Shown one piece after another: positions 248 to 64,000 of a stretch of DNA of 64,000 nt. The DNA lies in NCBI GenBank assembly GCA_026770705.1, contig JANJGN010000019.1, positions 79,732,001 through 79,796,000 on the forward strand, in the 5' to 3' direction. This DNA is from Isurus oxyrinchus. Its lineage: Eukaryota. Under the pieces are notes generated by a model. The model made no database searches, was not told where the DNA came from, and saw only the letters and a list, made by a program, of their open reading frames with translations. A program made the position numbers and the translations under genes. The first letter of the stretch is position 1; every line of letters begins with the position of its first letter.

Positions 248-2320
248 AGATAAAAACAAAATACTGTGGATGCTGGAAATCTGAAACAAAAATAAAAATA
301 GCTGGAAAACCTCAGCAGGTCTGACAGCATCTGCGGAGAGGAACACAGTTAATGTTTCGAGTCCATATGACCCTTCATCAGAACTAAGGAAATAGAGAAA
401 TTAGGTGAAATATAAGTTGGTAGAGGCAGGTGGAACAGGTAGAGCTGGATAGAGGGCCAGTGATAGGTGGAGGCAAAGAAGAGATTGCCAAAGATGTCAT
501 AGACAAAAGGACAAAGGGGTATTGACGGTGGTGATATTATCTAAGGAATGTGCTAATGGGAACATTAAGGGTAGCAAGCAGGACAAACAAGTGGCAGATG
601 GCTCGAGTGGGGGGAAGGGATTGAAATGGGTTAAAAGTGTGGAGATAAGTCTCACTTCCTCCAATTAAAAGGTGTGGCTATGGGTAACTGCATGGGCCCC
701 AGTTATGCCTGTCTCTTGGTGAGCTATGTGGAACATTCCTTGTTCCAGTCCTACTCCGGCCCCCTCCCACAACTCTTTCTCCGGTACATCGATGACTGCT
801 TCGATGCCATTTCATGCTCTCGTCTGGATCTGGAAAAATTTATTAATTTTGCTTCCAATTTCCACCCCTCCATCATTTTCACATGGTCCATCACTGACAC
901 TTCCCTTCCCTTCCTTGACCTCTCAGTCTCAATTTCTGGTGATAGACTGTCCACCAATATTCATTATAAGCCTACTGACTCCCACAGCTACCTTGACTAC
1001 AGCTCCTCACACCTTGCTTCCTTTAAGGACTCCATCCCATTCTCTCAGTTTCTTTGCCTCCGTCGCATTTGTTCTGATGATGCCACTTTCCAAAACAGTT
1101 CCTCTGACATGTCTTCCTTCTTCCTTAACCAAGGTTTTCCACTCACAGTGGTTGACAGGGCCCTCAACCGTGTCCGGCCCAGTTACCATGCATCCGGCCT
1201 CACCTTCCTCTCCCTCCCAGAACCTTGTCCTCACTTATCACCCCACCAGCCTCCGCATTCAAGGGATCATCCTCTGCCATTTCCGGCAACCCAGCATGAT
1301 GCCACCACCAAACACATCTTCCCTTCACCCCACCCCTGGCAGCTTTCCACAGGGATCGTTCCCTCTGAGACACCCTGGTCCACTCCTCCATCACCACCTA
1401 CACCTCAACCCCCTCCCACAGCACCTTTCCATGCAATTGCAAAAGGTGCAACACCTGCCCCTTTACTTCCCCCCTCCTCACCATCCAAGGGCCCAAACAC
1501 TCCTTTCAAGTGAAGCAGCACTTCCCTCAATTTAGTCTTCTGCATTCGCTGTTCCCAATGCAGTCTCCTCTACATTGGAGAGACCAAACACAGGCTGGGT
1601 GACCGCTTTGCGGAACACCTTGAGTCTGTCTGCAAGCATGACCCAGACATCCCTGTCGCTTGCCATTTCAATACATCACCCCGATCTTATGCCCACGTGT
1701 CCATCCTTGGCCTGCTGCCATGTTCCAGTGAAGCTCAATGCAAACTAGAGGAACAGCACCTCATCTTCCGACTAGGCACTTTACAGCCTTCCGGACTTAA
1801 TATTGAGTTCAACAACTTCAGATCATGAACTCTCTCCTTCATCTTCACCCCTTTCTGATGTCCCTTTTTCCAATAATTTATAATTTAAAAAATATATATT
1901 TTTCTTTTCCCACCTATTTTAGAATTTATTTCGATCCATTGTTTTATGTCCACCTTTTAGCCCATTTTGATCCCCCCCACCCCCCCCACCCCACTAGGGC
2001 CATCTGCCACTTGCTTGTCCTGCTTGCTACCCTTAATGTCCCCATTAGCATATTCCTTAGATAATATCACCACCGTCAATACCCCTTTGTCCTTTTGTCT
2101 ATGACATCTTTGGCAATCTCTTCTTTGCCTCCACCTATCACTGGCCCTCTATCCAGCTCTACCTGTCCCACCCCCTCTACCAGCTTATATTTCACCTAAT
2201 TTCTCTATTTCCTTAGTTCTGATGAAGAGTCATACGGACTCAAAATGTCAACTGTGTTCCTCTCTGCAGATGCTGTCAGACCTGCTAAGTTTTTGCAGCT
2301 ATTTTAATTTTGGTTTTGTT
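248..2320 (+). mobile_element. Neptune-type Penelope-like element copy A, 5'-truncated, with inverted terminal pseudo-LTR
   Basis: 650-1820 encodes decayed RT (GVAMG, FLRYIDD, PFLD, YKPTD) and GIY-YIG; 248-648 is the reverse complement of ~1943-2320; 12-bp TSD CCCATAACATTA at 236-247 and 2321-2332. Confidence 0.92.
347..385 (-). ncRNA. Minimal hammerhead motif with canonical CUGAUGA core (inverted arm of copy A)
   Basis: AGUU-CUGAUGA-A-GGGUC auaug GACUC-GAAA-CA-UU-AACU. Confidence 0.7.
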
Positions 2321-4727: not shown

Positions 4728-4900
4728 AAATAAAAGCAAAATATTGCAATGCTGGAGATCTGAAAAAGAAACAGTGCTGGAAAATTCAGTACTGTCTGAC
4801 AGCATCTGTGGAGAGAGAAACAGAGTTAACGTTTCAAGTCCGTATGACTTCTTCAGAACTGAAGAGAGGTAGGGATGTGATGGGTTTTATGCTGTTGAAA
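4728..4900 (-). mobile_element. Short PLE 3'-terminal fragment with near-intact hammerhead motif (4824-4860)
   Basis: Minus strand AGTT-CTGAAGA-AGTC atacg GACTT-GAAAC-GTT-AACT followed by the same terminal sequence as copies A and E. Confidence 0.75.
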
Positions 4901-20859: not shown

Positions 20860-21891
20860 ATTGTTGAAAACTTACTCTTTGTCTTGCACTCATCAGGATA
20901 ATTCACAAGAATACCAAATGTAAAGGGAACAACAATTTAAACTGCATGAGAAGAGAGTGTTGGTTGGCAAATGGACTCTGGTAGAGGTGTTGCCACGGAG
21001 AATGCACCACCAGTTAACTGCAAGCTTTATTTAAATTCAAACCAGGCAGGTTAACTCTGGTCAAGGCATTGCCCTGCAGAATGAAGCAGAGAATGGGTGG
21101 TGATGTGTGTACATGGTCTTTCTGTCTGCAAAGGACAGGGCCCTGTGTATTGATATGTAGTTTCTAGCATATGTAAGGTGAGCCATACTACGAGCGCAAC
21201 TGATAATCTTAAATTGGTTGTCAATGTAATTTCTTAGCACACACAGGATTGTTTAGCAAATGTCCAATCGCGGAATCGCATATAATGTTGGACACTGTTT
21301 TCAGTTTTGCAAGCACGGGCTTGTTGGGTAGGTAGGGCACCTTGCCTGTTGTGAACAGCCGAACGTTTGCTACGATCCGCCAGTCTTTGGGATATACGGC
21401 TCCATACCTAGCATCACACTGGCACTGAAATTCATATACCACATTACTCATTTTTGTGATAGGCAAAATGTCTCTTTAGCTTGACACCAATCGTGTTGCT
21501 ACTGCATTGTAACAGCATGAAATGGCTAGCTGTTGCTAAAATATTTTGGGATACCTTACCCCAGGGTAATTGAGGTAGACTGGACAATTTTAGGACCCAA
21601 AATGGCAGCTTTGGGTCCAATCATGAGATTGTGTGATATACAGCAAGCAAAGATCAGATCAGATCATTATCTCACAGGATAGCTTTGATAAACCCTACTT
21701 CAGCATCAAGCTTGCACCGTGAGCAATTGGCTCGGGGCCCTATTTACAAGGTAGCCGATAAGGCCAATCTTCTAGCATGTGGAACTGTAGGAACCTCAAC
21801 ACCTATATTGATTCGTAAAGGTATACTCGTGGTAGACCATGGTAGAGAACCGCCTGACAGATTTCTCAACTAGCACATCAAGGAAAGGGAT
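20860..21891 (-). mobile_element. Decayed Penelope-like element, third family
   Basis: Minus strand PFLDVLVEK..FSTMVY, SNVVYEFQCQCDARY (GIY-YIG), SAIGHLLNNP.C; degenerate hammerhead CTGATGA-GT gcaag AC-AAAG near 20878-20896. Confidence 0.75.
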
Positions 21892-21892
21892 G

Positions 21893-24213
21893 AAAACAAA
21901 GAAAACTGCGGATGCTGGAAATCCAAAACAAAAACAGAATTACCTGGAAAAACTCAGCAGGTCTGGCAGCATCGGCGGAGAAGAAAAGAGTTGACATTTC
22001 GAGTCCTCATGACCCTTCGACAGAACTTGATTTCGAGTCCAAGAAAGAGTTGAAATATAAGCTGGTTTAAGGTGTGTGTGTGGGGGGGGGAGGAGAGAGA
22101 GAGAGAGACAGAGGTGCTTGTGTAGACAAACAAGCAGTGATAGAAGCAGATCATCAAAAGATGTCAGTGACAATGGTGCAAAAGAACACATAGGTGTTAA
22201 GGTTAAAGTTGGTGATATTATCTAAACGAATGTGCTAATTAAGAATAGATGGTAGGGCACTCAAGGTACAGCTCTAGTGGGGGTGGGGGAGCATAAAAGA
22301 TTTTAAAATATTTAAAAATAATGGAAATAGGTGGGAAAAGAAAAATCTATAAAATTTATAGGGAAAAAAGGGGAAAAAAGGGGGAAACAGAAAGGGGGTG
22401 GGGATGGGGGAGGGAGCTCACGACCTAAAGTTATTGAATTCAATATTCAGACCGGAAGGCTGTAAGGTGCCTAGTCGGAAGATGAGGTGTTGTTCCTCCA
22501 GTTTGCGTTGGGCTTCACTGGAACAATGCAGTAAGCCAAGGACAGACATGTGGGCAAGAGAGCAGGGTGGAGTGTTAAAATGGCAAGCGACAGGGAGGTT
22601 TGGGTCATTCTTGCGGACAGACCGCAGGTGTTCTGCAAAGCGGTCGCCCAGTTTACGTTTGGTCTCTCCAATGTAGAGGAGACCACATTGGGAGCAACGA
22701 ATGCAGTAGACTAAGTTGGGGGAAATGCAAGTGAAATGCTGCTTCACTTGAAAGGAATGTTTGGGCCCTTGGACGGTGAGGAGAGAGGAAGTGAAGGGGC
22801 AGGTGTTACATCTTTTGCGTGGGCATGGGGTGGTGCCATAGGAGGGGGTTGAGGAGTAGGGGGTGATGGAGGAGTGGACCAGGGTGTCCCGGAGGGAGCG
22901 ATCCCTACGGAATGCCGATAAGGGGGGTGAAGGGAAGATGTGTTTGGTGGTGGCATCATGCTGGAGTTGGCGGAAATGGCGGAGGATGATCCTTTGAATG
23001 CGGAGGCTGGTGGGGTGATAAGTGAGGACAAGGGGGACCCTATCATGTTTCTGGGAGGGAGGAGAAGGCGTGAGGGCGGATGCGCGGGAGATGGGCCGGA
23101 CACGGTTGAGGGCCCTGTCAACGACCGTGGGTGGAAAACCTCGGTTAAGGAAGAAGGAGGACATGTCAGAGGAACCGTTTTTGAAGGTAGCATCATCGGA
23201 ACAGATGCGACGAAGGCGAAGGAACTGGGAGAATGGGATGGAGTCCTTACAGGAAGCGGGGTGTGAGGAGCTGTAGTCGAGGTAGCTGTGGGAGTCGGTG
23301 GGTTTGTAGTGGATATTGGTGGACAGTCTATCACCAGAGATTGAGACAGAGATTGTCTGGCGCACTGACCTCTACCTCGCGGAGGCTGAGCGTCAACTCG
23401 CAGACACTTCCTCCTACCTCTCCCTGGACCATGACCCCTCCACTGAACATCAAGCCATTGTTTCCAGGACTGTCGCTGACCTCATCTCCTCTGGGGATCT
23501 CCCTCCCACAGCTTCCAACCTGATAGTCGCCCAACCTCGGACGGCCCGCTTCTATCTCCTACCCAGAATCCACAAACAGAACTGCCCTGGTAGGCCGATC
23601 GTCTCAGCTTGCTCCTGCCCCACAGAACTCATTTCTCGTTATCTTGACTCCCTTCTCTCTCCCCTTGTCCAGTCCCTTCCCACCTACATCCGTGATTCCT
23701 CTGACACCTTATGTCACATCAACAATTTCCAGTTCCCTGGCTCCAACCGCTTCCTCTTCACCATGGACATCCAATCCCTCTACACCTCCATCCCCCACCA
23801 GGATGGTCTGAGGGCCCTTAGCTTCTTCCTCGAACAGAGGCCCGAACAATCCCCATCCACCACTACTCTCCTCCGTCTGGCTGAACTTGTTCTCACGTTG
23901 AACAATTTCTCCTTCAACTCCTCTCACTTTCTCCAAATAAAAGGTGTGGCTATGGGTACCCGCATGGGCCCCAGCTATGCCTGTCTCTTTATGGGGTATG
24001 TGGAACATTCCTTGTTGCAGTCCTACCCCGGCCCCCTTCCACAACTTTTTCTCCGGTACATCGATGATTACTTCGGTGCTGCTTCATGCTCTCGTCGGGA
24101 CTTGGAAAAATTTATTAATTTTGCTTCCAATCTCCACCCCTCCATCATTTTCACGTGGTCCATCTCTGACACTTCCCTTCCCTTCCTTGACCTCTCTGTC
24201 TCAATCTCTGGTG
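21893..24213 (-). mobile_element. Neptune-type PLE copy B, young, with inverted 5' segment
   Basis: 23352 to 22418 (-) is a stop-free RT thumb, CPRKRCNTC linker and GIY-YIG; 23353-24213 (+) is the stop-free upstream RT core (YLLPRIHK, GRPIVS, MDIQSLYTSIP, GVAMG, YIDD). Confidence 0.95.
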
Positions 24214-25932
24214 TGTGTGTGGGGGGGGGGGGGCGGTGGGGGGGAGAGACAGGTGAAGCTGGATAGAAGGCAATTGATAGGTGGAGGCAAGGAAGAGATT
24301 GCCAAAGATGTCATAAACAAAAGATCGAAGGGGTGTTGATGGTGGTGATGCTGGCTAAAGGAGGTGCTAATGGTGACGAGTAGAAAGCAGGATGAGCAAG
24401 TGCCCTAGTGAGGTTGGGGTGGAGGAGGGGATGGTGTGGGAGTAAAGATAGAAAAAGGCTAAAAGCTGGGGAAAAAACAATGAATGGAAATAAATTTTAA
24501 AAATAATAATAGAAATAAGTGGGGGAAAATATTTACATATAAAAATTACAAATTAAATATTGAAAAAAGGGGATCAAAAAGGGGTGAGGATGGAGGAGAG
24601 TGTTCATGATCTGAAGCTTTTGAACTCGAAGTTAAGTCAGGAAGATGAGGTGCTTTTCCTCCAGTTTGCATAGGGCTTCATTGAAACATTGCAGCAGGCC
24701 AAGGACGGACATGTGGACATGAGAGCAGGATGGTGTGTTGAAATGGCAAGCGACAGGAAGGTCTGGGTCATGCTTGCGGACAGACCGAAGGTGTTCTGCA
24801 AATTGGTCATCCAGTCTGCGTTTGGCCTCTCCAATGTAGAGGAGACCACAGTGGGAGCAGCGAATGCAGCAGACCAAATTGAGGGAAGTGCAAGGAGCGT
24901 TTGGGCCCTTGGACGTTGAGGAGGGGGGAAGTAAAGGGGCAGGTGTTGCAACTTCTGTGATTGCATGGGAAGGTGCCGTGGGAGGGGGTTGAGGTATAGG
25001 GGGTGATGGAGGAGTGGACCAGGATATCTCAGAGGGAACGGTTCCTATGAATGCCAGCGGGGGGGACAGAAGGGAAGATCTGTTTGGTGGCATCATGCTG
25101 GATTTGGTGGAAATGGAGGATAATGATCCTTTGAATGCGGAGGCTGGTGGGATGAAAAGTGAGGACAAGGGGTACTCTATTATGGTCCTGGAAGGGAGAG
25201 GCACTGAAGATGGGTTGGACATGGTTGAGGGCTCTGTCAACCACCGTGGGTGGAAAACCTCAGTTAAGGAAGAAGGAAGACATGTCAGAAGCACTGTTTT
25301 GGAAAATGGCATCATCGGAACAGTTGTGACGGAGGCAAAGGAACTGAGAGAATGGGATGGAGTCCTTACAGGAAGCAGGGTGTGAGGAGCTGTAGTCGAG
25401 GTAGCTGTGGGAGCCGGTGGGCTTGTAATGAATATTGTTGGACAGTCTATCACCAGAAATGGAGACAGAGGTCAAGAAAGGGAAGGGAAGTATCAGATGG
25501 ACCATGTGAAAGTGATGGAGGGGTGAAAATTGGAAGCAAAATTAATAAATTTTTCCAGGTCCAGACGAGAGCATGAGGTGGCACTGAAACAGTCATCGAT
25601 GTACCGGAGAAAGAGTTGTGGAATGGGGCCTGAGTAGGATTGGAAGAAGGAATCTTCCACATACTCCATAAAGAGACAGGCATAACCGGGGCCCATGCAG
25701 GTACCCATAGCCAATCCTTTTATCTGGAGAAAATGATACAAGTTTAAGGAGAAATTATTCAGTGAGATAACAAGTTCAGCCAGACGGAGCAAGAGACCAT
25801 CCCCCACCAGGATGGTCTGAGGGCTCTCTGCTTCTTCCTGGAACAGAGGCCCGAGCAATCCCCAAACACCGCCACTCTCCTCCGTCTGGCTGAATTTGTT
25901 CTCTCACTGAATAATTTCTCCTTAAACTTGTC
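24214..25932 (-). mobile_element. Neptune-type PLE copy C, older, lacking its terminal ~190 bp, with a short 5' inversion
   Basis: Decayed RT and GIY-YIG on - (25795 to 24610); 25797-25932 is an upstream RT segment in + orientation. Confidence 0.9.
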
Positions 25933-26713
25933 TGCTGTTAAAAGCAGCAGATGTGTTTGTAAAACTGTTAGATGCTACTTGGATTGATAGATTGATTTAT
26001 TCATATTTACAGTGACCCTTAATGGAGTGTACTTCATGGCTTTTTTCCACTGTTTGCTGAATTAGTGAATTAAACAAGGGCTAAACTCCTTATTAATACA
26101 TGAACGTTAAAGGGCTAGTTGGAAACATTTTTTCACGAAGCGTTATTGGGATTGTTATAATCAGTTAGGGACTGCTAACATTTAAAGAGAAATCTGAACA
26201 GTTCAACTAAATGAATAATGCCACAAGATTTAACATGAACACACTACGGTTATTTATTTCTGTAGGGCCCACTCATAGGTATGCAGTCCTCTGGAAACTA
26301 TCTAATTCTTCTCAGCTATAGCTTTCTCGGAGGTAAAACTTTCATTCACTATCTTTTGACTGTGGAGGCCTCAATCCCTGATCTGGTTACTTTTTGATAT
26401 TTCCAAGCTAATTCAGCTGATTACTTTCTTTTGCTACAAGACAGAGGCCCACTGCAGATTCCTCCCACTAGCTTCAAACTAGACAATCTTCCAGCTTCTG
26501 TCCCCCCTCAAAATTCAAATTGAGATTAAACCTTCCCTGCAGCGAATGAAGAAGTTTGTTTTTTGCTCTGCTATAGCGTAGGCCTATCTAACTATCATTT
26601 ACTTCAGCTATAAAAACAAAAAAACTGCGGATGCTGGAAATCCAAAACAAAAACAAAAACAGAATTCCCTGGAAAAACTCAGCAGGTCTGGCAGCATCGG
26701 CGGAGAAGAAAAG

Positions 26714-26752
26714 AGTTGACGTTTCGAGTCCTCATGACCCTTCGACAGAACT
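26714..26752 (-). ncRNA. Minimal type I hammerhead ribozyme motif (PLE-associated, A6U variant)
   Basis: AGUU-CUGUCGA-A-GGGUC augag GACUC-GAAA-CG-UC-AACU: 4-bp stem I, 5-bp stem II, palindromic ACGU in place of stem III. Confidence 0.7.
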
Positions 26753-26815
26753 TGAGTTCGAGTCCAAGAAAGAGTTGAAATATAAGCTGGTTTAAGGTGT
26801 GTGTGTGGGGGGGCG

Positions 26816-26848
<33 letters not shown>

Positions 26849-27148
26849 GTTGGTGTTGGTGGGGGGGGGGTGATGTGGTTGTATGGACAAACAAGCAGTG
26901 ATAGAAGCAGATCATCAAAAGATGTCAACAACAATAGTACAAAAGAACACATAGGTGTTAAAGTTGGTGATATTATCTAAACGAATGTGCTAATTAAGAA
27001 TGCAAGGTAGGGCACTCAAGGTATAGCTCTAGTGGGGGTGTTTTTTTTTAAATAATGGAAATAGGTGGGAAAAGGAAAATCTTTATAATTTATTGGAAAA
27101 AAAAAAGGAAGGGGGAAACAGAAAGGGGGTCGGGATGGGGGAGGGAGC

Positions 27149-29900
27149 TCATGACCTAAAGTTGTTGAATTCAATATTCAGTCCGGAAGGCTGTAAAGTG
27201 CCTAGTCGGAAGATGAGGTGTTGTTCCTCCAGTTTGCGTTGGGCTTCACTGGAACAATGCAGCAAGCCAAGGACAGACATATGGGCAAGAGAGCAGGGTG
27301 GAGTGTTAAAATGGCAAGCGACAGGGAGGTTTGAGTCATTCTTGCGGACAGACCGCAGGTGTTCTGCAAAGCGGTCGCCCAGTTTACGTTTGGTCTCTCC
27401 AATGTAGAGGAGACCACATTGGGAGCAACGAATGCAGTAGACTAAATTGGGGGAAATGCAAGTGAAATGCTGCTTCACTTGAAAGGAGTGTTTGGGTCCT
27501 TGGACGGTGAGGAGAGAGGAAGTGAAGGGGCAGGTGTTGCATCTTTTGCGTGGGCATGGGGTGGTGCCATAGGAAGGGGTTGAGGAGTAGGGGGTGATGG
27601 AGGAGTGGACCAGGGTGTCCCAGAAGGAGCGATCCCTACGGAATGCCGATAGGGGGGGTGAAGGGAAGATGTGTTTGGTGGTGGCATCATGCTGGAGCTG
27701 GCGGAAATGGTGGAGGATGATCCTTTGAATGCGGAGGCTGGTGGGGTGATAAGTGAGGACAAGGGGGACCCTATCATGTTTCTGGGAGGGAGGAGAAGGC
27801 ATGAGGGCGGATGCGCGGGAGATGGGCCGGACACGGTTGAGGGCCCTGTCAATGACCGTGGGTGGAAAACCTCAGTTAAGGAAGAAGGAGGACATGTCAG
27901 AGGAACTGTTTTTGAAGGTAGCATCATCGGAACAGATGCGACGGAGGCGAAGGAACTGAGAGAATGGGATGGAGTCCTTACAGGAAGCGGGGTGTGAGGA
28001 GCTGTAGTCGAGGTAGCTGTGGGAGTCGGTGGGTTTGTAATGGATATTGGTGGACAGTCTATCACCAGAGATTGAGACAGAGAGGTCAAGGAAGGGAAGG
28101 GAAGTGTCAGAGATGGACCACGTGAAAATGATGGAGGGGTGGAGATTGGAAGCAAAATTAAAAAATTTTTCCAAGTCCCGATGAGAGCATGAAGTGGCAC
28201 CGAAGTAATCATCGATGTACCGGAGAAAGAGTTGTGGAAGGGGGCCGGAGTCGGACTGGAACAAGGAATGTTCCACATACCCCATAAAGAAACAGGCATA
28301 GCTGGGGCCCATGCGGGTACCCATAGCCACACCTTTTATTTGGAGGAAGTGAGAGGAGTTGAAGGAGAAATTGTTCAGCGTGAGAACAAGTTCAGCCAGA
28401 CGGAGGAGAGTAGTGGTGGATGGGGATTGTTCGGGCCTCTGTTCGAGGAAGAAGCTAAGGGCCCTCAGACCTCCTGGTAGGGGATGGAGGTGTAGAGGGA
28501 TTGGACGTCCATGGTGAAGAGGAAGCGGTTGGGGCCAGGGAACTGGAAATTGTTGATGTGACGTAAGGTGTCGGAGGAATCACGGATGTAGGTGGGAAGG
28601 GACTGGACAAGGGGAGAGAGAAGGGAGTCAAGATAACAAGAAATGAGTTCTGTGGGGCAGGAGCAAGCTGAGACGATCGGTCTACCGGGTCTGTTCTGTT
28701 TGTGGATTTTGGGTAGAAGATAGAAGCGGGCCGTCCGAGGTTGGGCGACTATCAGGTTGGAAGCTGTGGGAGGGAGATCCCCAGAGGAGATGAGGTCAGT
28801 GACAGTCCTGGAAACAATGGCTTGATGTTCAGTGTTGGGGTCATGGTCCAGGGAGAGGTAGGAGGAAGTGTCTGCGAGTTGACGCTCAGCCTCCGCGAGG
28901 TAGAGGTCAGTGCGCCAGACAACAACAGCACCACCCTTGTCAGTGGGTTTGATGACAATGTCAGGGTTGGACCTGAGAGAATGGAGTGCAGTAAGTTCAG
29001 AGAGAGACAGGTTAGAATGGGTGAGAGGAGCAGAGAAATTGAGACGACTAATGTCGCGCCGACAGTTCTCAATGAAAAGATCAAGAGAAGGTAAGAATCC
29101 AGAGGGAGGGGTCCAGGTGGAGGGAGAATATTGGCGATGGGTAAAAGGATCCGTTGAACTGGGAGAGGACTCCTGCCCAAAGAAGTGAGCCCGGAGACGA
29201 AGACGGCGGAAGAAGAGTTCAGCATCATGCCGAGCCCGAAATACATTGAGGTGAGGGCGTAAGGGTATGAAACTAAATCCTTTGCTGAGCACTGAACGTT
29301 CAGCATCGGAGAGGGGAAGGTCAGGGGGTATAGTGAATACACGGCTGGGGTAGGGACTGGAAGAAAGGGTGGGGATGGAGGGACAGGCAGGGGTGGAGGG
29401 TCCTAGATGGGTGTTGGTGTCGTTGAGTTGTTGGAGCTTGCGTTCCTTAGCATTTGAGAGAAAGAGAAAAAGTTCCTTGTTGAGGCGTCCGATGAGCCGA
29501 AGGATAAAAACTGGGGGCACGCGCAGCTTTGAAACAGGGTACGGCGGCGCTGCTGGAGGGAGAGGTCGAGTGTGTTCATATGACGGCGCATGGCACTGAG
29601 TGTGGATTTCAGAATGTAACGGGAACAGCAGTCCGAGAAACGTTTTATGTCCCGGAGATACCTGTAATCCTGGGTGGGTTCGAAACATGAGGGGTGGAAT
29701 TTCAGTTGAAATCCACGTGGGGTAAGTCGGAGATGGAGACAGTCACTGAGAAAGGAGATATGGTTGTGAAAGCAAGTTTTAGTAAACACCTTGTCAAACA
29801 CCAGGAGGGAAATGGAAAGCAAGGAAGGTGAGCAGGGCAAAAGAGAGGAACAGAAATCTTGTCGCAGAAAAGAACAGAACTTCTTCAAGGAGGTAGGCAT
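27149..29900 (-). pseudogene. PLE RT / GIY-YIG endonuclease ORF (~915-920 codons) with about two frameshifts and one nonsense codon
   Basis: Stitched ORFs 29403-29924, 28465-29688, 27872-28330 and 27149-27802: HISFLSDC..TPRGF, VLSKGFSF, IKPTDKGG, YLLPKIHK, YIDD, CPRKRCNTC, LVYCIRC..LYIGET, GLN; 1-bp deletion near 28470 relative to copy B; TGA at 27872. Confidence 0.92.
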
Positions 29901-30038
29901 TTCTTGAACAGCAGTGGCAGTCAATTAAACACAGATAAAAACAAAAAAACTGCGGATGCTGGAAATCCAAAACAAAAACAAAAACAGAATTACCTGGAAA
30001 AACTCAGCAGGTCTCGCAGCATCGGCGGAGAAGAAAAG

Positions 30039-30077
30039 AGTTGACGTTTCGAATCCTCATGACCCTTCCACAGAACT
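30039..30077 (-). ncRNA. Minimal hammerhead motif in the 5' pseudo-LTR of copy D
   Basis: AGUU-CUGUGGA-A-GGGUC augag GAUUC-GAAA-CG-UC-AACU. Confidence 0.65.
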
Positions 30078-30806
30078 TGAGTTCGAGTCCAAGAAAGAGT
30101 TGAAATATAAGCTGGTTTAAGGTGTGTGTGTGCTATCTTAGTGAGCTGAAAACTACATACACTAGTTCCAAACTGCAACTAACTTTTCCAGCAAATGCTC
30201 AGATAAATTAAAATAAGAGAATCTTCCTCCACTGTACCCATCTCCATTATGACATAGCATGCTCTGCAATGTCCTCAAACTGACCTTTAGATTAAGTATC
30301 CCCAATTTGCAATTTTTTGTTTGATCCAAAGGATGCAAATGTGCAAATGGGTTTTACAACTATTCATGGTTCACTGAATGAATGCTTTTGAACTAATTTA
30401 GCTCTATCTCCCAAAACAAAATCATCTTTCTGGAATTCCCTTGTTCTTGCAAGCATTGCAGACATCTTGTCTCCAGTTCTTTCATTAAGTAAGCCCACCT
30501 GCTGTTTTATGGTTCTCGCTCTATTCTATTCTGGTTTTTTAATCAAACATGCCATTTCTTGAGATTTTCAGCTTTTTAATTACCTTACCTTTACAAAAAG
30601 GTTAACATGAACCATGAACTAGATATTCACAAGAATGCTTTAATGTTGATAGCTTTGAAAGCTGAGTCAATCATATTTAATGAGGAATTAGGTAAATATT
30701 AAAGTAGGAGTTGGCACAGATGCAATAACCTTTCTATGGTGAAAATTCCCTATCAACATTTTCCTGCAAAAAAAATCAAAGTTATTTTTGGTTTATTTCT
30801 CTCCAG

Positions 30807-41731: not shown

Positions 41732-43883
41732 GTAATGCTTCTTCATGTTGTGTGACAGCTTTAATAGCACCACTTCAGTGCTGTTCCCACTGTGTCCAAA
41801 ATACTAGCTAGGGTTCCAATATAAGCAACTGATGGTGCAATCCCAGAACTGCTGGTGCTCTTTCAGTGGCTCGATTCATTGTTCAGAGTGCTGATGTGTG
41901 ATCCCTTCAAATAAATGGTAAACCAAATATAAGCACAGAATATTCCAAACCACATGCAGTCCACTCCCCCTTTTATCAGTTACCTGATTAAAGTGTACTG
42001 CTAAAATACAAAGATTTTTCAAAGTTGCTGTAATCTTGATCTTTTGAGTGAAGGACCCCTATCACTGCTTTGATGCTGCAGAGGTTTTGATTCTGATAAT
42101 TTCTTACATTAACCAGCAGGGGGCCTGCTATTATGTCTTGTGTAACTTCATTTTCATTCAATCCCTTTGTTTCACAACTTATGACTTTGAAGAGTTTTCT
42201 TGCGGCAGTTCAGGTCTGATATAGTAGAAGTGCCTGCAAAAGGATTTTGTTGTATAGCTCCTTGAGCAATGGGAGGTGGGAGTGGAGTTTTTTCTCCTTG
42301 AAGTCTTGTTTCATGGAATAGGAAATTCACAACTGGCCCCAATCCAACCTCTTGTTCTCTCTTTGTCCCCTCCTCTTGCTCTTCTTGGCCCCTTCAGCTG
42401 TGTGCAGTACAATTATTACGGTCAACCTATATTTGTATTCAGTAAATTAAGCAATTCACCAATCCCTGAGGTTTTTTTTTGGAGCAAATTCTCATAGTGC
42501 TAGTGTGGGCCAGTTTTACATTTTGATCTTTTTAGGAGTAGGATTTAGGAAATGCGTGTTCCTGAACCTACATCCAGGTATATCAGGTTATACGTTTTAG
42601 TGCTTAATATGGTAAATATAGAGTTCATGTGACTTTAATCTGGGGAGAATGAAAAAATCAGTTAGAGTGGTCACTATCTCATAACTTCTGGTGTGAAGTG
42701 TGAGAATAGGTGGAGAGTTGGTTGTGAGGTGCCCATGATTGAATATTCTAACAGTTGCTGTTTTAACATGCAGGAAGAATGGCTGCTTTGTGTGAGATAC
42801 TAGAGATCTACAGAATGGCACCTAGCTTGAGCACTGCCATTCCAGAGGTGCTGAGTCCAGTCATAATACCCTGTTGCTATCACTGTATTCACCTAAATCG
42901 GTTCAAAGCAGAGACTGAACTCAGCACGCTGAGTCAGTTAAATGAATCATAGAATCATACAGCACAGAAGCAGGCTATTCAGCCCATCCTGCTGTTGTCA
43001 GCTCTTGGAAAGAGCTGTCCAATTAGTCCCATTCCTCTACACATTTTCATAGCCCTGCAAATGTTTTCAAACGTACAGTGAACCACTGGGAATTCTGTTA
43101 TCGTTGTAAGTGATTTTTCAATATTCAAAAGTAAACTAAATTCAGATTTAAATGGTTTCATGGATTAACAGAAAATCAGCACCACTGGTAAGTTATTCTT
43201 GTTATATGTCGTCAGAAGAATTCCTACATACTTAACCTATGATTAATCAGTGCCACCTATATTTCTACTTGTATGCTACCTCCAGAAATCCCTTGCTTCT
43301 TGAAATTTTAAAATGCTGTGTGCATCTCCCGTACATACTCACCTACTGAGAGTTGTATCTTCTGAGCCATTCCCTCTTCTGCTTTGTTCACTTCTGCTCC
43401 TTTTTATTTTTATTTTTTTGGCTATCTCTCAGTGCGAGTATTGGGATATGTAATCTCTAGCCGAATCAGACCCAACTGGCTGGGATCAAACCCACAACCT
43501 TACTCGTGCATGTAGTGCATGATTTTTAAAACAAAAAATTCGTGCCAATTTGCTACAGGTCATATTGGCCTTTTGCTGGGAGCCAGGATCGTGGAAAGGA
43601 TAACCAACTACAAATGATGCCTGTTGGCAGTGTTTTGAGTCATTGTTTCCCTTTCCTGTCTCAGCTTAATGTCTCAGTTCTGAACTATTCATGACTCTAT
43701 ACGGTAACCCAGTTCTCCTCACAGCGCAGCCTTTTAATCAAGATTCGTGGTCTAGCAAAATCAATTTAGCTTTCTAATTGTATAGTCTATTTTTTATTGA
43801 GCAAGCATAAGTAACAGTGACCATTTTCAGTTTCAGTTTTGCCCGTTGTGTAGAGTTATTGGGTTTGAAGAAGAGCATTTTAT

Positions 43884-44529
43884 TTCTGCCAATTCCAGTG
43901 TGGTGCCACCACCAAACACATCTTCCCTCCACTGCTCCCTTGTCAGCATTCCGTAGGGACCTTTCCCTCCAGGATATCCTGGCCCACTCCTCCAGCACTG
44001 CCAACACCTCATCGCACCTTCCCATACAATCGCAGAAGGTGCAACACCTGCCCCTTTACCTCCTGCTACTTCACTGTCCAAGGCCCAAACACTCCTTTCA
44101 GGTGATGCAGCACTTCTTCACTTGCACCTCCTTCAATTTGGTCTACTGCATTCACTGCTCCCAATGTGGTCTCCTCTACATTGGAGAGACCAAACGCAGA
44201 GTGGGTGACCGCTTTGCGGAACACCTTTGGTCTGTCCACATGCATGACCCAGGCCTCACTGTTGCTTGCCATTTCAACACACCACCCTGCTCTCATGCCC
44301 ACATGTCCCCCCCCCCTTGGCCTGCTGCAATGTTCCAGTGATGCCTAATGCAAACTGGAGGAACAGCACCTCATCTTCCAATGAGGCACTTTATAGCCTT
44401 CAGGACTTGACATTGAGTTTAACAACCTCAAACCATGAACTCTCGCCTCTATTTTCACCCTTTTTTATATCCCTTTTTAAAATTTATTTTTATTAATTTT
44501 TTATCCCATTTTTTATCTCTTTTTATCAC

Positions 44530-44565
<36 letters not shown>

Positions 44566-45070
44566 ACCTTACCAGTTCAGGTTCCTCACCCCATTTCGGG
44601 TTCCACCCCCCCTTTCTAGTTCCCCATTTTCCCCCAACCATTGCCCCTTACCCTCCACCCCACCCCCAAAAGGGCTATCTGTTAGTTGTTCCATGATGTT
44701 CTTTCACAGTGGTGACCCTTGTTCTGCTATTCACACATTCTGCTTTCTTACCTTTATGCCACTATCAGCACCTTGCTTAGCCTTTATCACTACCATTAAC
44801 ACTTCCTTTGTCTTTTTGTCCATGACATCTTTGTCAATCTCTCCTTAGCCCCATCTGTTGCTGACCTTCTAACCAGCTTTACCTGCTCCACCCCCCCCCC
44901 CAAAACAGTATAAATTCCATCACATTTCTACTTCTCTTTAGCTCTGAAGAAGAGTCATACAGACTCAGTGTTAACTCTGTTTCTCTTTCCACAGATGCTG
45001 TCAGACCTGAGTTTTTTCCAGCATTTTCTGTTTTTATTTCAAATTTCCAGCATCTGCAGTATTTTGCTTT
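43884..45070 (+). mobile_element. Neptune-type PLE copy E, 3' fragment in intron 4
   Basis: FNLVYCIHCSQCGLLYIGETKRRVGDRFAEHL; 3' UTR with a 33-C run and a disabled hammerhead at 44940-44976. Confidence 0.9.
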
Positions 45071-55705: not shown

Positions 55706-56034
55706 TTGCAGTTGAATTAGAGCACAGCAATGTTTGGTATGCTTAACCTGCGTTTCAGATCTGGGATTGCACACCACTCCCAGTGAAAGATAAAACCAGT
55801 CCATAAATCCTTAGCAGTGATGCTCTTCACCTTCCCAGTCCAAATTCTACAGTACACTAACACAGGGGAGGGTCTTGTGGCACACTGGGTAGCGTCCCTA
55901 CCTCTTGAGCCAGAAGATCTGGGTTCAAGTCTCATCCCAGGACTTGGTGGCCAAGGAAGGTGCATTCATAACCTGGCCAAACCTGTATCAACCTGTAAAT
56001 CCTTCCAACACATGCCAATGGCAGGTGGTTTCCT

Positions 56035-56416
56035 AAACAAAAACAGAATTACCTGGAAAAACTCAGCAGGTCTGGCAGTATCGGTGGAGAAGAAAAGAGT
56101 TGACGTTTCGAGTCCTCATGACCCTTCAACAGAACTGAGTGAATCTTAGGAAAGGAGTGAAATATAAGGTGGGGGGGGGGTGGTGTGGTTGTAGGGACAA
56201 GCAAGCAGTGATAGGAGCAGATAATCAAAAGATGTCACAGACAAAAGAACAGGTGTTGAAGGTAGTGAAATTATCCAAACGAATGTGCTAATTAAGAATG
56301 GATGATAGGGCACTCAAGATACAGCTCTAGTGGGGGTGGGGTGGAAAGATGTAAAAATAATGGAAATAGGTGGGAAAAGAAAAATCTATATAAATTATTG
56401 GAAAAAACAAAAGGAA
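56035..56416 (-). mobile_element. Solo Neptune pseudo-LTR / 3' UTR inserted into a tRNA-derived SINE
   Basis: Homologous to 21920-22380; 8-bp TSD GGTTTCCT at 56027-56034 and 56417-56424; hammerhead CUGUUGA at 56098-56136; SINE head at ~55865-55945. Confidence 0.88.
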
Positions 56417-57214
56417 GGTTTCCTGGTCATCTATATGATGGAAAGAAAATTGGAGCCTCTACCACCACTATCCATAGCTCTGGACTAAAATATGCATATA
56501 AAAGTGCATGTTGCCACAGCCACCCGGATTTCTTGGCTGGGGGTGTGGTGGGGCAGTTGGCTCAGTTGGCTGGACGCCCAGCGTGGATCAGATTGGTGCC
56601 AATAGCACAGGGTTTGATCTCTGTTCCGGTTGGGGTGGATTTGGGACCTGCCTCCTTATTCCGCTGTGGGCCCAATCTTTTTTCAGGCCAAGAACTAAAG
56701 AAGCAGCAGTACAGGATTCAGTTCCAAGCCAGTGAATTAAATTGTGTGAACCAGATCTTCCGTTGCGTCACAACAGCTCCAAGGAGTAAGATATAAATGT
56801 TGGAATGTTACAGAGTAACAGATCAGACTGTACTTTGAGGCTGTAATGCATCTTGGGCTAAGAAATGGTTGGAACTTGCCTTTTCTGTTGCTGTTTTGGT
56901 GCAATGTCCTCAATCCATGAATATCTAGAAATGTAGCACACTTACAATTTGCGTGTTATATATGTCATTCCTTTTTGGCTTTTGTATTCATTTTTGAAAA
57001 ATAATTGTGAGGCAATTTTACACCATTTGCACAGCAGCAATGTGGTAACTGTTGTTGAAATGGATTAAGTAGAGCCTCATGCCACGGCTTGCAGATCTGA
57101 GGCTATTAATTAATTAAAGATTTAAATACCAGTTCTAAGCAAGTCAAGTGTTGAGCACATAAAGCATCATAAGAGCAAGGATTTATCCAACATTTATCCT
57201 TCGAACATTCACCC

Positions 57215-60695: not shown

Positions 60696-61119
60696 ATCTC
60701 TGTATCTGCCCTGGTGAATCCCTTTAACCCTGCAAACACTTCAATTAGACCACTCGCAACCTGTAGATTCCCCACAGAATACAAATCAAGACTTTGCAAT
60801 CTCTTCTTACAATTTTACACTTTAAGTTCCAGGCAGCAGCTGCGTGATTCTGAAACCTGAAAAATTAGGATGAATTTTTGGAAACTTTTTTTACAAATTC
60901 AATGGTTGTCATCTGGATAAATTTAAAAGTAAATTCTGAGATTAGGGTCATCCCTTAAACAAGTAAATATTTAACAAATAAAAACAGAAAATTCTAGAAA
61001 TACTCAGCAGGTCTGGCAGCATCTGTTGAAACAGAAACAGACTTAATGTTTCAGGTTGATGACCTTTCAGATATTCGTTTCTGTTTGTTTTGTTCAAAGT
61101 TATTTTTTTAAAGTAAAAA

Positions 61120-62780
61120 GGAGAGTGACCACAGTGTGTCCAGTGTTAGGACAGTGTAGACCCACCGTACAGAGGACAGTGACCACACTGTGTCCAGCGT
61201 TAGGACAGTGTTGACCCACAGTACAGAAAAGAGTGGCCACTGCGTGGCTAGTGTTAGGACAATACAGACCAGGAGACCAGGGATGCACTTTTTCATCTGG
61301 CCTGCGATGAGATTTCAAAATCTGCACCCCCAACCACCCCCCCCCCCCCCACCCCCCCCCCCCCCCCAACCACCAGCATGCTGCTCTCCAGGTCAGCCGC
61401 CGCCAAGTTCTGATGCCTAAGCCTCAGCCTCAGTCATCAGTGGCCCAGGCTGTGGGGAGAGAGCGAGGCCCGAGATCCAGGAGCAGGAGCGCAAGGCAAG
61501 GACGGGAAGCTTCTGGCTGCCAGTCAGGTGGTGAGAAAGAGAGACAGAGTGGGAAAGGAGAGAGAGAGAGAGACAGCCAGAGTGGGAAAGCAGAGAGAGA
61601 GACAGACAGAGTAGGAAAGGGGAGAGAGAGAGAGAGAGAGAGATACAGAGTGGGAAAGGGGAGAGAGACACACACAGAGTGGGAATGAGAGAGAGAGACA
61701 GACAGATAGAAAGAGTGAGAAAGGAGAGAGACAGAGGGAGACAGAGAGAGAGAAAAGCCAGCTGCGAGTGGCAATATTATCAGTGCCAGCAGACATAACA
61801 AGGCTCATTAAGGAAAAGCAAACTCAGCCATTGCATTAAAGCAATGGGTGATTTGAACATTTTTACATTCTCTCTGAAAATATGTAAACTAAATTGGTTT
61901 TTACATGTTTGGCCTGCGACTGATTTTGTCTATGTGTGAGTGGCTTTTGATAAGAAAATGGTTGCCTACCCCTGATATAGACCTACAGTACATAGAAGAG
62001 TGACCACTGTGTGACCAGTGTTGGGACAGTGTAGACCCACAGTACAGATGAGAGTGACCACAGTGTGTCCAGTGTTGGGACAATGTAGACCCACAATACA
62101 GAGGAGAGTGATTGCAGTGTGTCCAGTGTTGGGACAGTGTAGACCCACAGTACATAGAAGAGTGACCACAGTTATTTTTTTAAAGTAAAAAGGAGAATGA
62201 TCACAGTGTCTCCTGTGTTAGGATAGTGTCGACCCACAATAGGGGGGAGTGACCACTGTGTGTCTAGTGTTGAGACAGTGTAGACCCACAGTACATAGAA
62301 GAATGACCACAGTGTGTCCAGTGTTGGGACAGTGTTGATCTACAGTACAGAGGAGAGTGGCCACAGTTGTCCAGTGATGGGACAGTGTTGATCCACAGTA
62401 CAGAGAGTGACCACAGTGTGTCCAGTGTTGGGACAGTGTAGATCCACAATACAGAGGAGAACGACCACAGTGCATCCAGAATTGGGACAGTGTAGATCCA
62501 TAGTACAGGGAGAAAGACCACAGTGTGTCCAGTGTTGGAACAGTGTAGATCCACAGTACAGAGGAGAATGACCACAGTGCATCCAGAGTTGGGACAGTGT
62601 AGATCCATAGTACAAGGAGAATGACCACAGTGTGTCCAGTGTTGGGACAGTGTAGATCCATTGTACAGAGGAGAGTGACCACAATGTGTCCAGTGTTAGG
62701 GGACAGTGTCGATACACAGTACAGAGAAGAATGACCACACTGTCTCCAGTGTTGGGACAGTGTTGACCCACAATACAGAA
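61120..62780. repeat. 54-bp minisatellite (about 18 units) interrupted by a hAT element
   Basis: Unit GAGTGACCACAGTGTGTCCAGTGTTGGGACAGTGTAGACCCACAGTACAGAGGA. Confidence 0.92.
61270..61974. mobile_element. Non-autonomous hAT (Charlie-like) transposon with internal (GA)-rich tract
   Basis: CAGG...GGTTGCCTACCCCTG ends; 8-bp TSD ATACAGAC / ATATAGAC. Confidence 0.75.
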
Positions 62781-63046
62781 GGGAGCCTTTTAGTCAGAAA
62801 AATTAATGGAATTTCATAATGATAGCTGGGCTAAATGGGTTATATTTTGGGTAAAGTTTGCATAGACTTAGCTTGTATTCCCTGGAGTGTACAAGATAAG
62901 TGGTGATCTAATTGAGGTGTTTAAAATGAACAAAGGATTTGATATGATAGATAAAGAGAAACAACTCTTTCCCCCATAAAGCTGTTAGGAAGCGGAGGGC
63001 AGTGGTGGTGTCAATTGAACATTTCAAAACTGAGATTGATAGAATT

Positions 63047-64000
63047 TAAAACAAAAACAGAATTACCTGGAAAAACTCAGCAGGTCTGGCAGCATCGGCG
63101 GAGAAGAAAAAAGTTAACGTTTCGAGTCCTCATGACCCTTCAAGAGAACTGAGTAAAAATAGGAGAGGGGTGAAATATAAGCTGGTTTGGGGGTGGTGGT
63201 GGTGGGGGGGGGGGGGGGGTGGTGGTTGTAGGGACAAGCAAGCTGTGATAGGAGCAGATAATCAAAAGATGTCACAGACAAAAGAACAAAGAGGTGTTGA
63301 AGGTAGTGATATTATCTAAAAGAATGTGCTAATTAAGAATGGATGGCAGGACACACAAGGTACATCTCTAGTGGGGGTGGGGTGGAAAGACTAACAGGGC
63401 ATACAAGATATAGATTTAAAAATAATGGAAATAGGTGTGAAAAGAAAAATCTATATAAATTATTGGAAAAAACAAAAGGGGGAAGAAACGGAAAGGGGGT
63501 GGGGAGTTCAAGATCTAAAGTTGTTGAATTCAATATTCAGTCCAGAAGGCTGTAAAGTGCCTAGTTGGAAGATGAGGTGCTGTTCCTCCAGTTTGTGTTT
63601 GTTTCACTGGAACAATGCAGCAAGCCGAGGACAGATATGTGGGCAAGAGAGCAGGGTGGAGTGTTAAAATGGCAAGCCACAAGGAGGTTTGGGTCTTTCT
63701 TGCGGACAGACCACAGGTGTTCTGCAAAGCGGTTACCCAGTTTGCGTTTGGTCTCTCCAATGTAGAGGAGATCGCATTGGGAGCAACGTATGCAGTAGAC
63801 TAAGTTGGGGGAAATGTGTTTGCATGCGGAGGTGCCTTAGGTGGGGAGTGAGGAGTAGGGGGTGATGGAGGAGTGGACCAGGGTGTCCCGGAGGGAACGA
63901 TCCCTACAGAATGCCACCAGGGGAGTGAAGGGAAGATGTGTTTGGTGGTGGCATCATGCTGGATTTGGCGGAAATGCGGAGGATGATCCTTTGAATGCGG
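63047..64000 (-). mobile_element. Neptune-type PLE copy F, 3' part running off the window end
   Basis: Homologous to 21920-23000; GIY-YIG remnants, internal deletion near 63817, mutated hammerhead CUCUUGA at 63112-63150. Confidence 0.92.

Follow-up and report, generated by a model that had tools for sequence, protein, structure and literature searches.

The stretch of shark DNA analyzed here comprises 64,000 nucleotides of Isurus oxyrinchus (contig JANJGN010000019.1, positions 79,732,001 to 79,796,000 of the forward strand; hereafter the window, in whose numbering all coordinates are given) and contains young and old insertions of a Penelope-like retrotransposon whose pseudo-long terminal repeats (pseudo-LTRs) carry a minimal hammerhead motif. 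In the young insertions the adenine at position 6 of the hammerhead core (A6) is replaced by uracil (U6), and this A6U change is the subject of our study. The span of interest holds a full-length insertion, P1, and a rearranged one, P2 (Table 1). A preliminary description of this DNA had assigned the element to the Penelope-like elements, and the assignment is borne out by the reverse transcriptase (RT; Pfam RVT_1, E = 1.8e-8) and GIY-YIG endonuclease (EN; E = 8.3e-5) domains and by the direct pseudo-LTRs around the open reading frame (ORF) of P1; together with the 5'-inverted insertion in P2, these features identify a C-terminal EN+ Penelope-like element. The P1 pseudo-LTRs differ by four substitutions in 198 aligned bases, and both contain a hammerhead (30039 and 26714). 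Residue 1 of a 904-residue relative falls on the ATG at 29900, and the match is colinear from there to 27167. Insertion P2 covers 21891-24213; its RT part is inverted, and neither part holds a stop. The decayed older copy at 24240..25928 retains no hammerhead, and a target-site duplication of at least 7 bases was not convincingly found at the ends of P1 or P2. In the translation, a C-X4-C-X2-C linker precedes the GIY-YIG domain, and C..C/H..H residues are present; a comparison by eye with the Neptune1_Nv row suggests on these grounds an element of Neptune type, the linker being also a feature of Nematis. A linker of the form CX2-5CxxC has been described for both Neptune and Nematis (PMC8557442). 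A tree of relatives, which includes no named reference clades, leaves the position of the element unresolved; among named relatives, a bamboo shark protein has the highest identity (62-72%), which by itself makes a cartilaginous fish the likely host.

Table 1. Penelope-like insertions in the window, their hammerhead motifs and associated signals.
Feature	Coordinates	Strand	Remarks
Full-length insertion P1	26610-30132	-	two pseudo-LTRs and a single ORF
5' pseudo-LTR of P1	29934..30132	-	98% identical to the 3' pseudo-LTR
3' pseudo-LTR of P1	26610..26807	-	
Single ORF of P1	27149..29900	-	RT, then GIY-YIG; two frameshifts, one stop
P2, 3' part	21891..23352	-	RT thumb, C-X4-C-X2-C linker, GIY-YIG endonuclease, 3' untranslated region (UTR), pseudo-LTR; open, stop-free
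P2, inverted 5' part	23353..24213	+	RT core (RVT_1); stop-free
Decayed older copy, same element family	24240..25928	-	about 80-87% identical to the young copies; last piece (25797-25928) inverted
U6 motif CUGUCGA	21989..22027	-	3' pseudo-LTR of P2; 15.2 is U, a CpG-type change
U6 motif CUGUCGA	26714..26752	-	3' pseudo-LTR of P1; position 6 at 26745; predicted cleavage after C17 (26718)
U6 motif CUGUGGA	30039..30077	-	5' pseudo-LTR of P1; private G-U in stem II
U6 motif CUGUUGA	56098..56136	-	sister subfamily; 3' end fragment 56031-56418
U6 motif CUCUUGA	63112..63150	-	G5 decayed; sister subfamily; joined to endonuclease coding sequence reaching the window end
Older A6 motif CUGAUGA	347..385	-	decayed; 15.2/16.2 broken
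Older A6 motif CUGAUGA	2215..2253	+	G12A; behind older RT-EN copy 649-2318
Older A6 motif CUGAAGA	4824..4860	-	2-base deletion in stem II
Older A6 motif CUGAAGA	44940..44976	+	GAAA lost; behind older EN fragment 43882-44500
TATA-like box	30103..30110	-	36 bases ahead of core position 3; putative promoter element
Candidate 5' UTR intron	29903..29993	-	GTAATT ... AG just ahead of the ATG; predicted from the sequence

Nine hammerhead motifs are located in the window, five young ones with U6 and four older ones with A6, and re-reading confirmed for all of them the sites and cores given in the preliminary description. Position 6 of the U6 motifs lies at 22020, 26745, 30070, 56129 and 63143. Apart from small private changes, the five young copies, all on the minus strand, share the layout AGUU-core-A-GGGUC-AUGAG-GACUC-GAAA-CG-UC-AACU: stem I has 4 bp (AGUU/AACU) and stem II 5 bp, GAAA is present, a single additional A follows A9, the 15.2/16.2 pair is C-G (U-G in the 21989 motif), and the cleavage triplet is GUC (GUU in the 63112 motif). 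Each of them has all features of a minimal hammerhead, i.e. stems I and II, the base after A9, G10.1-C11.1, GAAA, the 15.2-16.2 pair and an NUH triplet, and none matches the consensus core CUGANGA, all five having U6 and the 63112 motif additionally G5C. When up to two core mismatches are tolerated, a structural descriptor picks out the five young sites and no others in 128 kb (both strands of the window). As a control, DNA downstream of related elements (about 64 kb) was shuffled five times; with one mismatch, the descriptor finds no site in the shuffles, and one on the reverse strand of that DNA. The young motifs are not chance matches. A search of the whole window against Rfam yielded no hammerhead family with E of 1 or less, be it at the U6 or at the A6 copies.

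The copies are fewer than the motifs. Because the motifs at 30039 and 26714 sit in the two pseudo-LTRs (5' and 3', respectively) of a single insertion, the five U6 motifs represent four insertions, and thus two or three source lineages; the five young copies first described all carry U6, but they are not five insertions. The three motifs of the span of interest (21989, 26714 and 30039) come from two insertions only, which are 97-98% alike. The motifs at 56098 and 63112 represent a sister subfamily, in which another spacer precedes stem I. The older copies do have A6 in four out of four cases, as had been claimed, but each is decayed at another place and none passes the full descriptor.

That U6 is a shared subfamily trait rather than random decay was part of the preliminary description, and two lines of evidence support it. 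The first is the phylogeny: in a tree of six EN-region copies, the U6-linked copies form one clade (support 100/99) nested among older copies that are A6-linked or without a motif, and hence, on midpoint rooting, A6 is the ancestral state. The second is a survey of four out of 24 listed public sequencing runs, three of which gave alignments, under two organism labels; their contigs (51,780 from run X4, 92,199 from X1 and 5,682 from X15) were aligned to 26610-26795 at 85% likeness, with differences listed from 4% of depth. At 26745, and throughout 26728-26758, no alternative letter reaches at least 4% of depth in any of the three runs with alignments, so that a rarity of U6 among young copies, which the preliminary description had named as adverse to its proposal, is not borne out; single-letter variants do appear at 26726 (8.6, 7.3 and 2.0%) and at 26759 in the three runs. 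Relative to stem II, the bin around position 6 has a mean depth of 83% in X4, 66% in X1 and 68% in X15. These figures refer to depth-weighted unitigs and not to copy number; X1 is flagged as incompletely counted, and the old A6 families are under-counted, being clipped at 26706 or falling below the likeness cut. The survey shows that an abundant young-type A6 subfamily is absent from the three runs. Altogether, U6 is supported as a derived subfamily trait, and the change likely happened a single time, in a source element whose lineage likely kept retrotransposing up to a high copy number.

The coding sequences linked to U6 appear to bear traces of selection. Between P1 and P2, 307 C-terminal codons differ by 16 synonymous and 7 non-synonymous changes (ratio of non-synonymous to synonymous divergence, dN/dS, 0.13; p = 6e-6), and the pooled comparison, which includes the RT codons, yields 24 and 25 (p = 1.6e-4). 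Between P2 and the sister subfamily, the numbers for 158 codons are 17 and 20 (dN/dS 0.35, p = 0.003). Because of this synonymous excess between U6 copies, the lineage likely remained active, and U6 would have been transmitted via successive source elements under protein-coding constraint.

We also examined the hammerhead cores of related elements. The C-terminal part was aligned with 43 of 120 listed homologues, and 89 loci were retrieved (the best 80 of 476 in metagenomes, and 9 in genome contigs), of which 63 have at least 150 bases after the nuclease. A core-blind scan, which ignores positions 3-9 and requires the stems, GAAA and NN-UH, finds 30 motifs among these 63 loci; as controls, the reverse strands of all 63 yielded none, and shuffling them in 20 rounds yielded 2. 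In these 30 motifs, G5 and A9 are invariant, whereas position 3 is C in 28 and U in 2, position 4 U in 21 and C in 9, position 6 A in 27, U in 2 and G in 1, and position 8 G in 26 and A in 4; altogether, 12 motifs deviate from CUGANGA. The two U6 cores, each a single copy, are UUGUCAA in L003 (2792-2826) and UCGUAAA, also with C4, in L018 (1507-1540); both combine U6 with a U3-A8 pair and follow Neptune-type ORFs that are stop-free over 729 and 417 aligned residues, with one frameshift in L003. Their positions in the tree of relatives are unresolved. Since the shark U6 is derived from shark A6 relatives, U6 has at least two origins. The G6 core occurs in L041, with 592 open codons. The C4 core CCGACGA characterizes a supported sub-lineage (95/89) of a coral-type Neptune family (L015, L059, L067, L081, L083, L084 and L086; C4 also in L034 and L018) with the motif 110-280 bases past the nuclease; the family motif agrees with that of the Acropora digitifera Neptune element in Fig. 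S3 of Cervera (PMC4209133). In L081 the frame is open over 775 codons, and the carriers of U6, G6 and, in several cases, C4 (L003, L018, L041 and L081) have zero or one stop. The variant is less singular than the preliminary description implied, U6 and G6 occurring also in other intact-looking Neptune-type elements. This distribution suggests that descriptor searches demanding CUGANGA under-count Penelope motifs, including the C4 sub-lineage. The pattern as a whole, with changes at positions 4 and 6 and in the 3-8 pair and never at G5 or A9, leans towards an attenuated catalyst rather than lost catalysis.

Neither viral nor metagenome contigs contain a match to the shark-type motif pattern itself, scans of viral contigs at the protein level brought up no relative of the element, and a sequence search for a solved structure found none. 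Two further observations concern the related loci. Several animal-type Penelope elements with hammerheads (L081-L087 and L089) lie inside records of bacterial metagenome-assembled genomes, where they are probably host DNA in the bins. In L003, a long near-perfect inverted repeat is found upstream of the ORF (95-190), with the word CUGAUGAAG in the loop region.

With respect to secondary structure, 97.7% of the stem cells in the nine window copies are paired, with one-sided A-U/G-U differences at 10.2-11.2, and the isolated motif is predicted to fold stem II with a probability of 0.82-0.98 in four of the five young copies. Cofolding of two copies gave the hammerhead or double-hammerhead fold for neither U6 nor A6 and is thus non-discriminating. 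A 5-bp helix of core positions 4-8 with 15.2-1.1, on the cleavage strand, is predicted to trap the monomer that has the consensus letter at position 6; the predicted energy is -7.3 kcal/mol for U6 versus -11.3 kcal/mol for the consensus, and the trap probability 0.72 versus 1.00. The youngest subfamily also has a new upstream spacer with partial motif repeats (GGACUCGAA and UCAACUCUUU, at 26753-26770, 22028-22045 and 30078-30095) that are able to pair with stem I and the core. The repeat GGACUCGAA was considered as an explanation of U6 and rejected, as it is missing from 56098 and 63112.

Upstream of the motif, each of the nine window copies has a TATA-like box at a distance of 33-36 bases from core position 3, despite the spacer differences between the subfamilies; the box recurs at 37-41 bases in most of the coral-type family. 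At near-constant spacing it is also present in L012, L014, L032 and others, and it is missing in several other lineages (L004, L016, L057 and L085). TATA and Inr elements in pseudo-LTRs have been noted before (PMC3846280). The arrangement suggests that the transcript would start at about stem I. For the candidate intron in the 5' UTR, no spliced reads were seen in the public-run alignments. The older copies display a branch-point, a pyrimidine tract and an AG immediately past the motif (7/7 seen); in the U6 copies, the AG at the equivalent of 26699 is lost (5/5), and a GTAATT donor-like site is found downstream, at the equivalents of 26667-26668 (4/5). Splice signals may have been rearranged along with the U6 lineage. 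Loose ends at 26669 were considered as splicing at this GT site and rejected: they are old-family DNA and look the same in DNA runs and in the run guessed to be RNA. The assignment of the latter, X15, to RNA is a guess, and no claim on transcription rests on it.

As to the surroundings, exons resembling those of a ZIP transporter lie on the plus strand at about 30800, 38460, 41700, 45140, 46400 and 49760, with weak Pfam scores below the cut-off; the gene would be ZIP zinc-transporter-like and resembles SLC39A9. Because these exons run on the plus strand, P1 and P2 are antisense insertions with respect to this host gene. By contrast in orientation, the decayed motif at 44940 is in sense, about 160 bases before one of the ZIP-like exons, and a tandem array of units of about 54 bases occupies 61095-62785.

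The interpretation that we prefer is that the A6U motif is not decayed, but a tolerated core variant of a Penelope-like lineage, predicted to be a slow, probably strongly attenuated RNA that still folds as a hammerhead; we give this reading a probability of roughly one half. According to this model, transcription would start near the motif, with the TATA-like box about 30 bases upstream, and, within one transcript, the two pseudo-LTR motifs (5' and 3') would pair via the palindromic A-C-G-U of stem III, as Cervera's work of 2014 suggests for such elements (PMC4209133). The uracil probably removes one or two hydrogen bonds of the core and would lower the rate, as A6C does; residual cutting could then depend on dimer formation and on help from the element's own protein, as in the element of the anole. 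Selection would retain the stems, G5, the 3-8 pair, A9 and GAAA, and would tolerate rate-lowering changes at positions 4 and 6 because insertion presumably does not require fast cutting; hammerhead-dead mutants of the anole element do insert in vitro (PMC11167929). Moreover, if transcripts start at stem I, cutting would strip the cap, which is a possible reason why low activity is tolerated. We favor the attenuated motif because the changes in the relatives avoid G5 and A9 and lie at places (positions 4 and 6 and the 3-8 pair) whose published natural variants are still weakly active: the A6C hammerhead of phage Bcep176 cleaves at less than 0.1/min, and a viroid with U4C has low activity in vitro and is infectious nonetheless (both PMC3088659).

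Several observations weigh against this interpretation. No motif was found by the core-blind scan in 33 of the 63 related loci, the 30 motifs collapse to about nine lineages when grouped by motif and tree, GAAA was fixed by the design of the scan, and L023 and L034 carry G8A together with C3, which is probably decay. The 283 RT codons of P1 and P2 appear neutral (8 synonymous and 18 non-synonymous changes, p = 0.29) and differ from the C-terminal half (Fisher p = 0.01); mosaic sources or chance may account for the difference. In the public runs, the contrast in variant positions between core and flank is not significant (0/12 versus 17/103, p = 0.21; CpG sides p = 0.13), and the 50 bases downstream of the motif are as conserved as the motif itself. 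Compensatory changes, whose absence the preliminary description had listed as unfavorable to its proposal, do not occur: none of ten stem pairs changes on both sides in the nine window copies, which are too close to each other for a strong test. With flanking sequence, the predicted folds of the young and most of the old copies alike lose stems I and II. From the literature, even canonical minimal hammerheads barely cleave as dimers (PMC4209133); the rate of A6C falls about 1e5-fold at 0.3 mM Mg in one ribozyme (PMC7151607); and in a comprehensive mutagenesis, all single and double changes in the CUGA region result in low activity, only the C3-G8 swap being excepted (PMC9901934). The residual activity of the U6 motif may therefore be nil.

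The foremost alternative is that catalysis was lost: A6U was fixed by drift or hitch-hiking since cleavage is dispensable, and the motif is kept by its youth or by a role in protein binding, transcription start or splicing. We regard this as possible, at odds clearly below even. The low activity of CUGA mutants, without rescue (PMC9901934), is in line with it, and so are the results on the anole Poseidon element PAc, whose hammerhead-dead mutants still insert normally in vitro and for which no RNA reads end at the cut site (PMC11167929), as well as the success of Naiad elements, which thrive without canonical hammerheads (PMC8557442). On the side of the shark element, the U6 lineage is young, covering only a dS of 0.08-0.17, two-sided covariation is absent among the window copies, and the fixed spacing of the TATA-like box in sharks and in the coral-type family would fit a function in transcription. 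If catalysis were lost, however, G5 and A9 should be as free to drift as positions 4 and 6, and both are invariant in 30/30 related motifs; furthermore, the 3-8 pair, important in the active fold, is kept along with U6 in L003 and L018.

A bolder extension of the attenuated-hammerhead reading, which we consider doubtful, is that Neptune-type elements have repeatedly evolved cores (U6, G6, C4) that are near-dead as naked RNA and cleave inside the element's own ribonucleoprotein; the A6U shark lineage would then be a protein-gated ribozyme, and searches for the consensus core would have missed whole high-copy animal families. It seems rather improbable that U6 is near-neutral or even helpful, breaking the off-pathway trap helix and trading chemistry for folding while the dimer or the protein restores the rate. 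The predicted monomer trap is indeed weakened by 4 kcal/mol, U4C is predicted to weaken the same helix in the coral-type family, and the anole hammerhead is assisted by protein (PMC11167929); any change at position 6 must, however, break the A6-U16.1 pair, so that the effect is partly built in, about ten canonical relatives retain the complete helix, and published changes at this position reduce the rate (PMC7151607, PMC9901934, PMC3088659). Very improbable is a selectivity for Mn over Mg with conditional cleavage, known from A6C in two ribozymes that stay well active in Mn: it has been demonstrated for C6 only and in non-minimal ribozymes, and the authors themselves doubt its biological relevance (PMC7151607). 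Lastly, a local accident, i.e. a mutation shared by a few related or trans-mobilised dead copies, would suit the two similar insertions of the span, but is largely refuted, and hardly tenable, given that U6 is common to two subfamilies with different upstream spacers, is close to fixation in the three public runs (two organism labels), and is linked to ORFs with a synonymous excess.

For the question whether Penelope-like elements need hammerhead cleavage, this successful high-copy lineage of a vertebrate represents a natural experiment with a one-base control, since its fixed change affects a position considered essential. Should the U6 motif be dead, amplification in vivo does not depend on cleavage and the motif serves some other purpose; should it be able to cleave, the natural hammerhead core is wider than assumed, and rescue by protein or dimer is indicated. 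Regarding novelty, A6U is, within the literature searched, new here, while A6C and U4C are already published. The searched literature, which also covered PMC6765202, PMC6155905 and bioRxiv 10.64898/2026.07.22.740005 and to which Lunse et al. 2017 and Ruffner 1990 do not belong, contained no A6U or U6 hammerhead core, hence no catalogue entry for the variant of the kind that the preliminary description had considered, and nothing on point about Penelope hammerheads of sharks. In Fig. S3 of Cervera and De la Pena 2014, A6 is present in 56/56 motifs, none from cartilaginous fish (figures S2, S4 and S5 are outside this comparison); their search used a consensus-core descriptor, U3-A8 being the single core variant mentioned in the text consulted (PMC4209133).

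Compared with the minimal hammerheads of Penelope elements in that study (PMC4209133), the shark motif is similar in almost every respect: it is of type I, with a short stem I, an extra base between 9 and 10.1, G10.1-C11.1, GAAA, the palindromic 15.2-16.2 and an NUH triplet, and a copy lies in each pseudo-LTR, about 3.3 kb apart. What differs is the U at position 6. With the A6C hammerhead of Bcep176 (PMC3088659, PMC7151607), it shares a natural change at the same core position and the predicted loss of one or two hydrogen bonds; unlike the single phage locus with C, however, the shark U is found in a high-copy retroelement lineage, and whereas the phage activity has been measured (low in Mg, good in Mn), U6 is known here from its sequence. 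Neptune elements (Craig 2021, PMC8557442) likewise have a single ORF, an RT followed by a C-terminal GIY-YIG domain, a CX2-5CxxC linker, and tandem or 5'-inverted insertions. The anole element PAc (Frangieh 2024, PMC11167929) resembles the shark element in being a Penelope-like element of a vertebrate whose pseudo-LTR ahead of the ORF carries a minimal hammerhead. It has a canonical A6, its cleavage needs the element's protein, and its ORF starts inside stem II, whereas the shark ORF begins about 140 bases after the motif and encodes a linker of apparent Neptune type.

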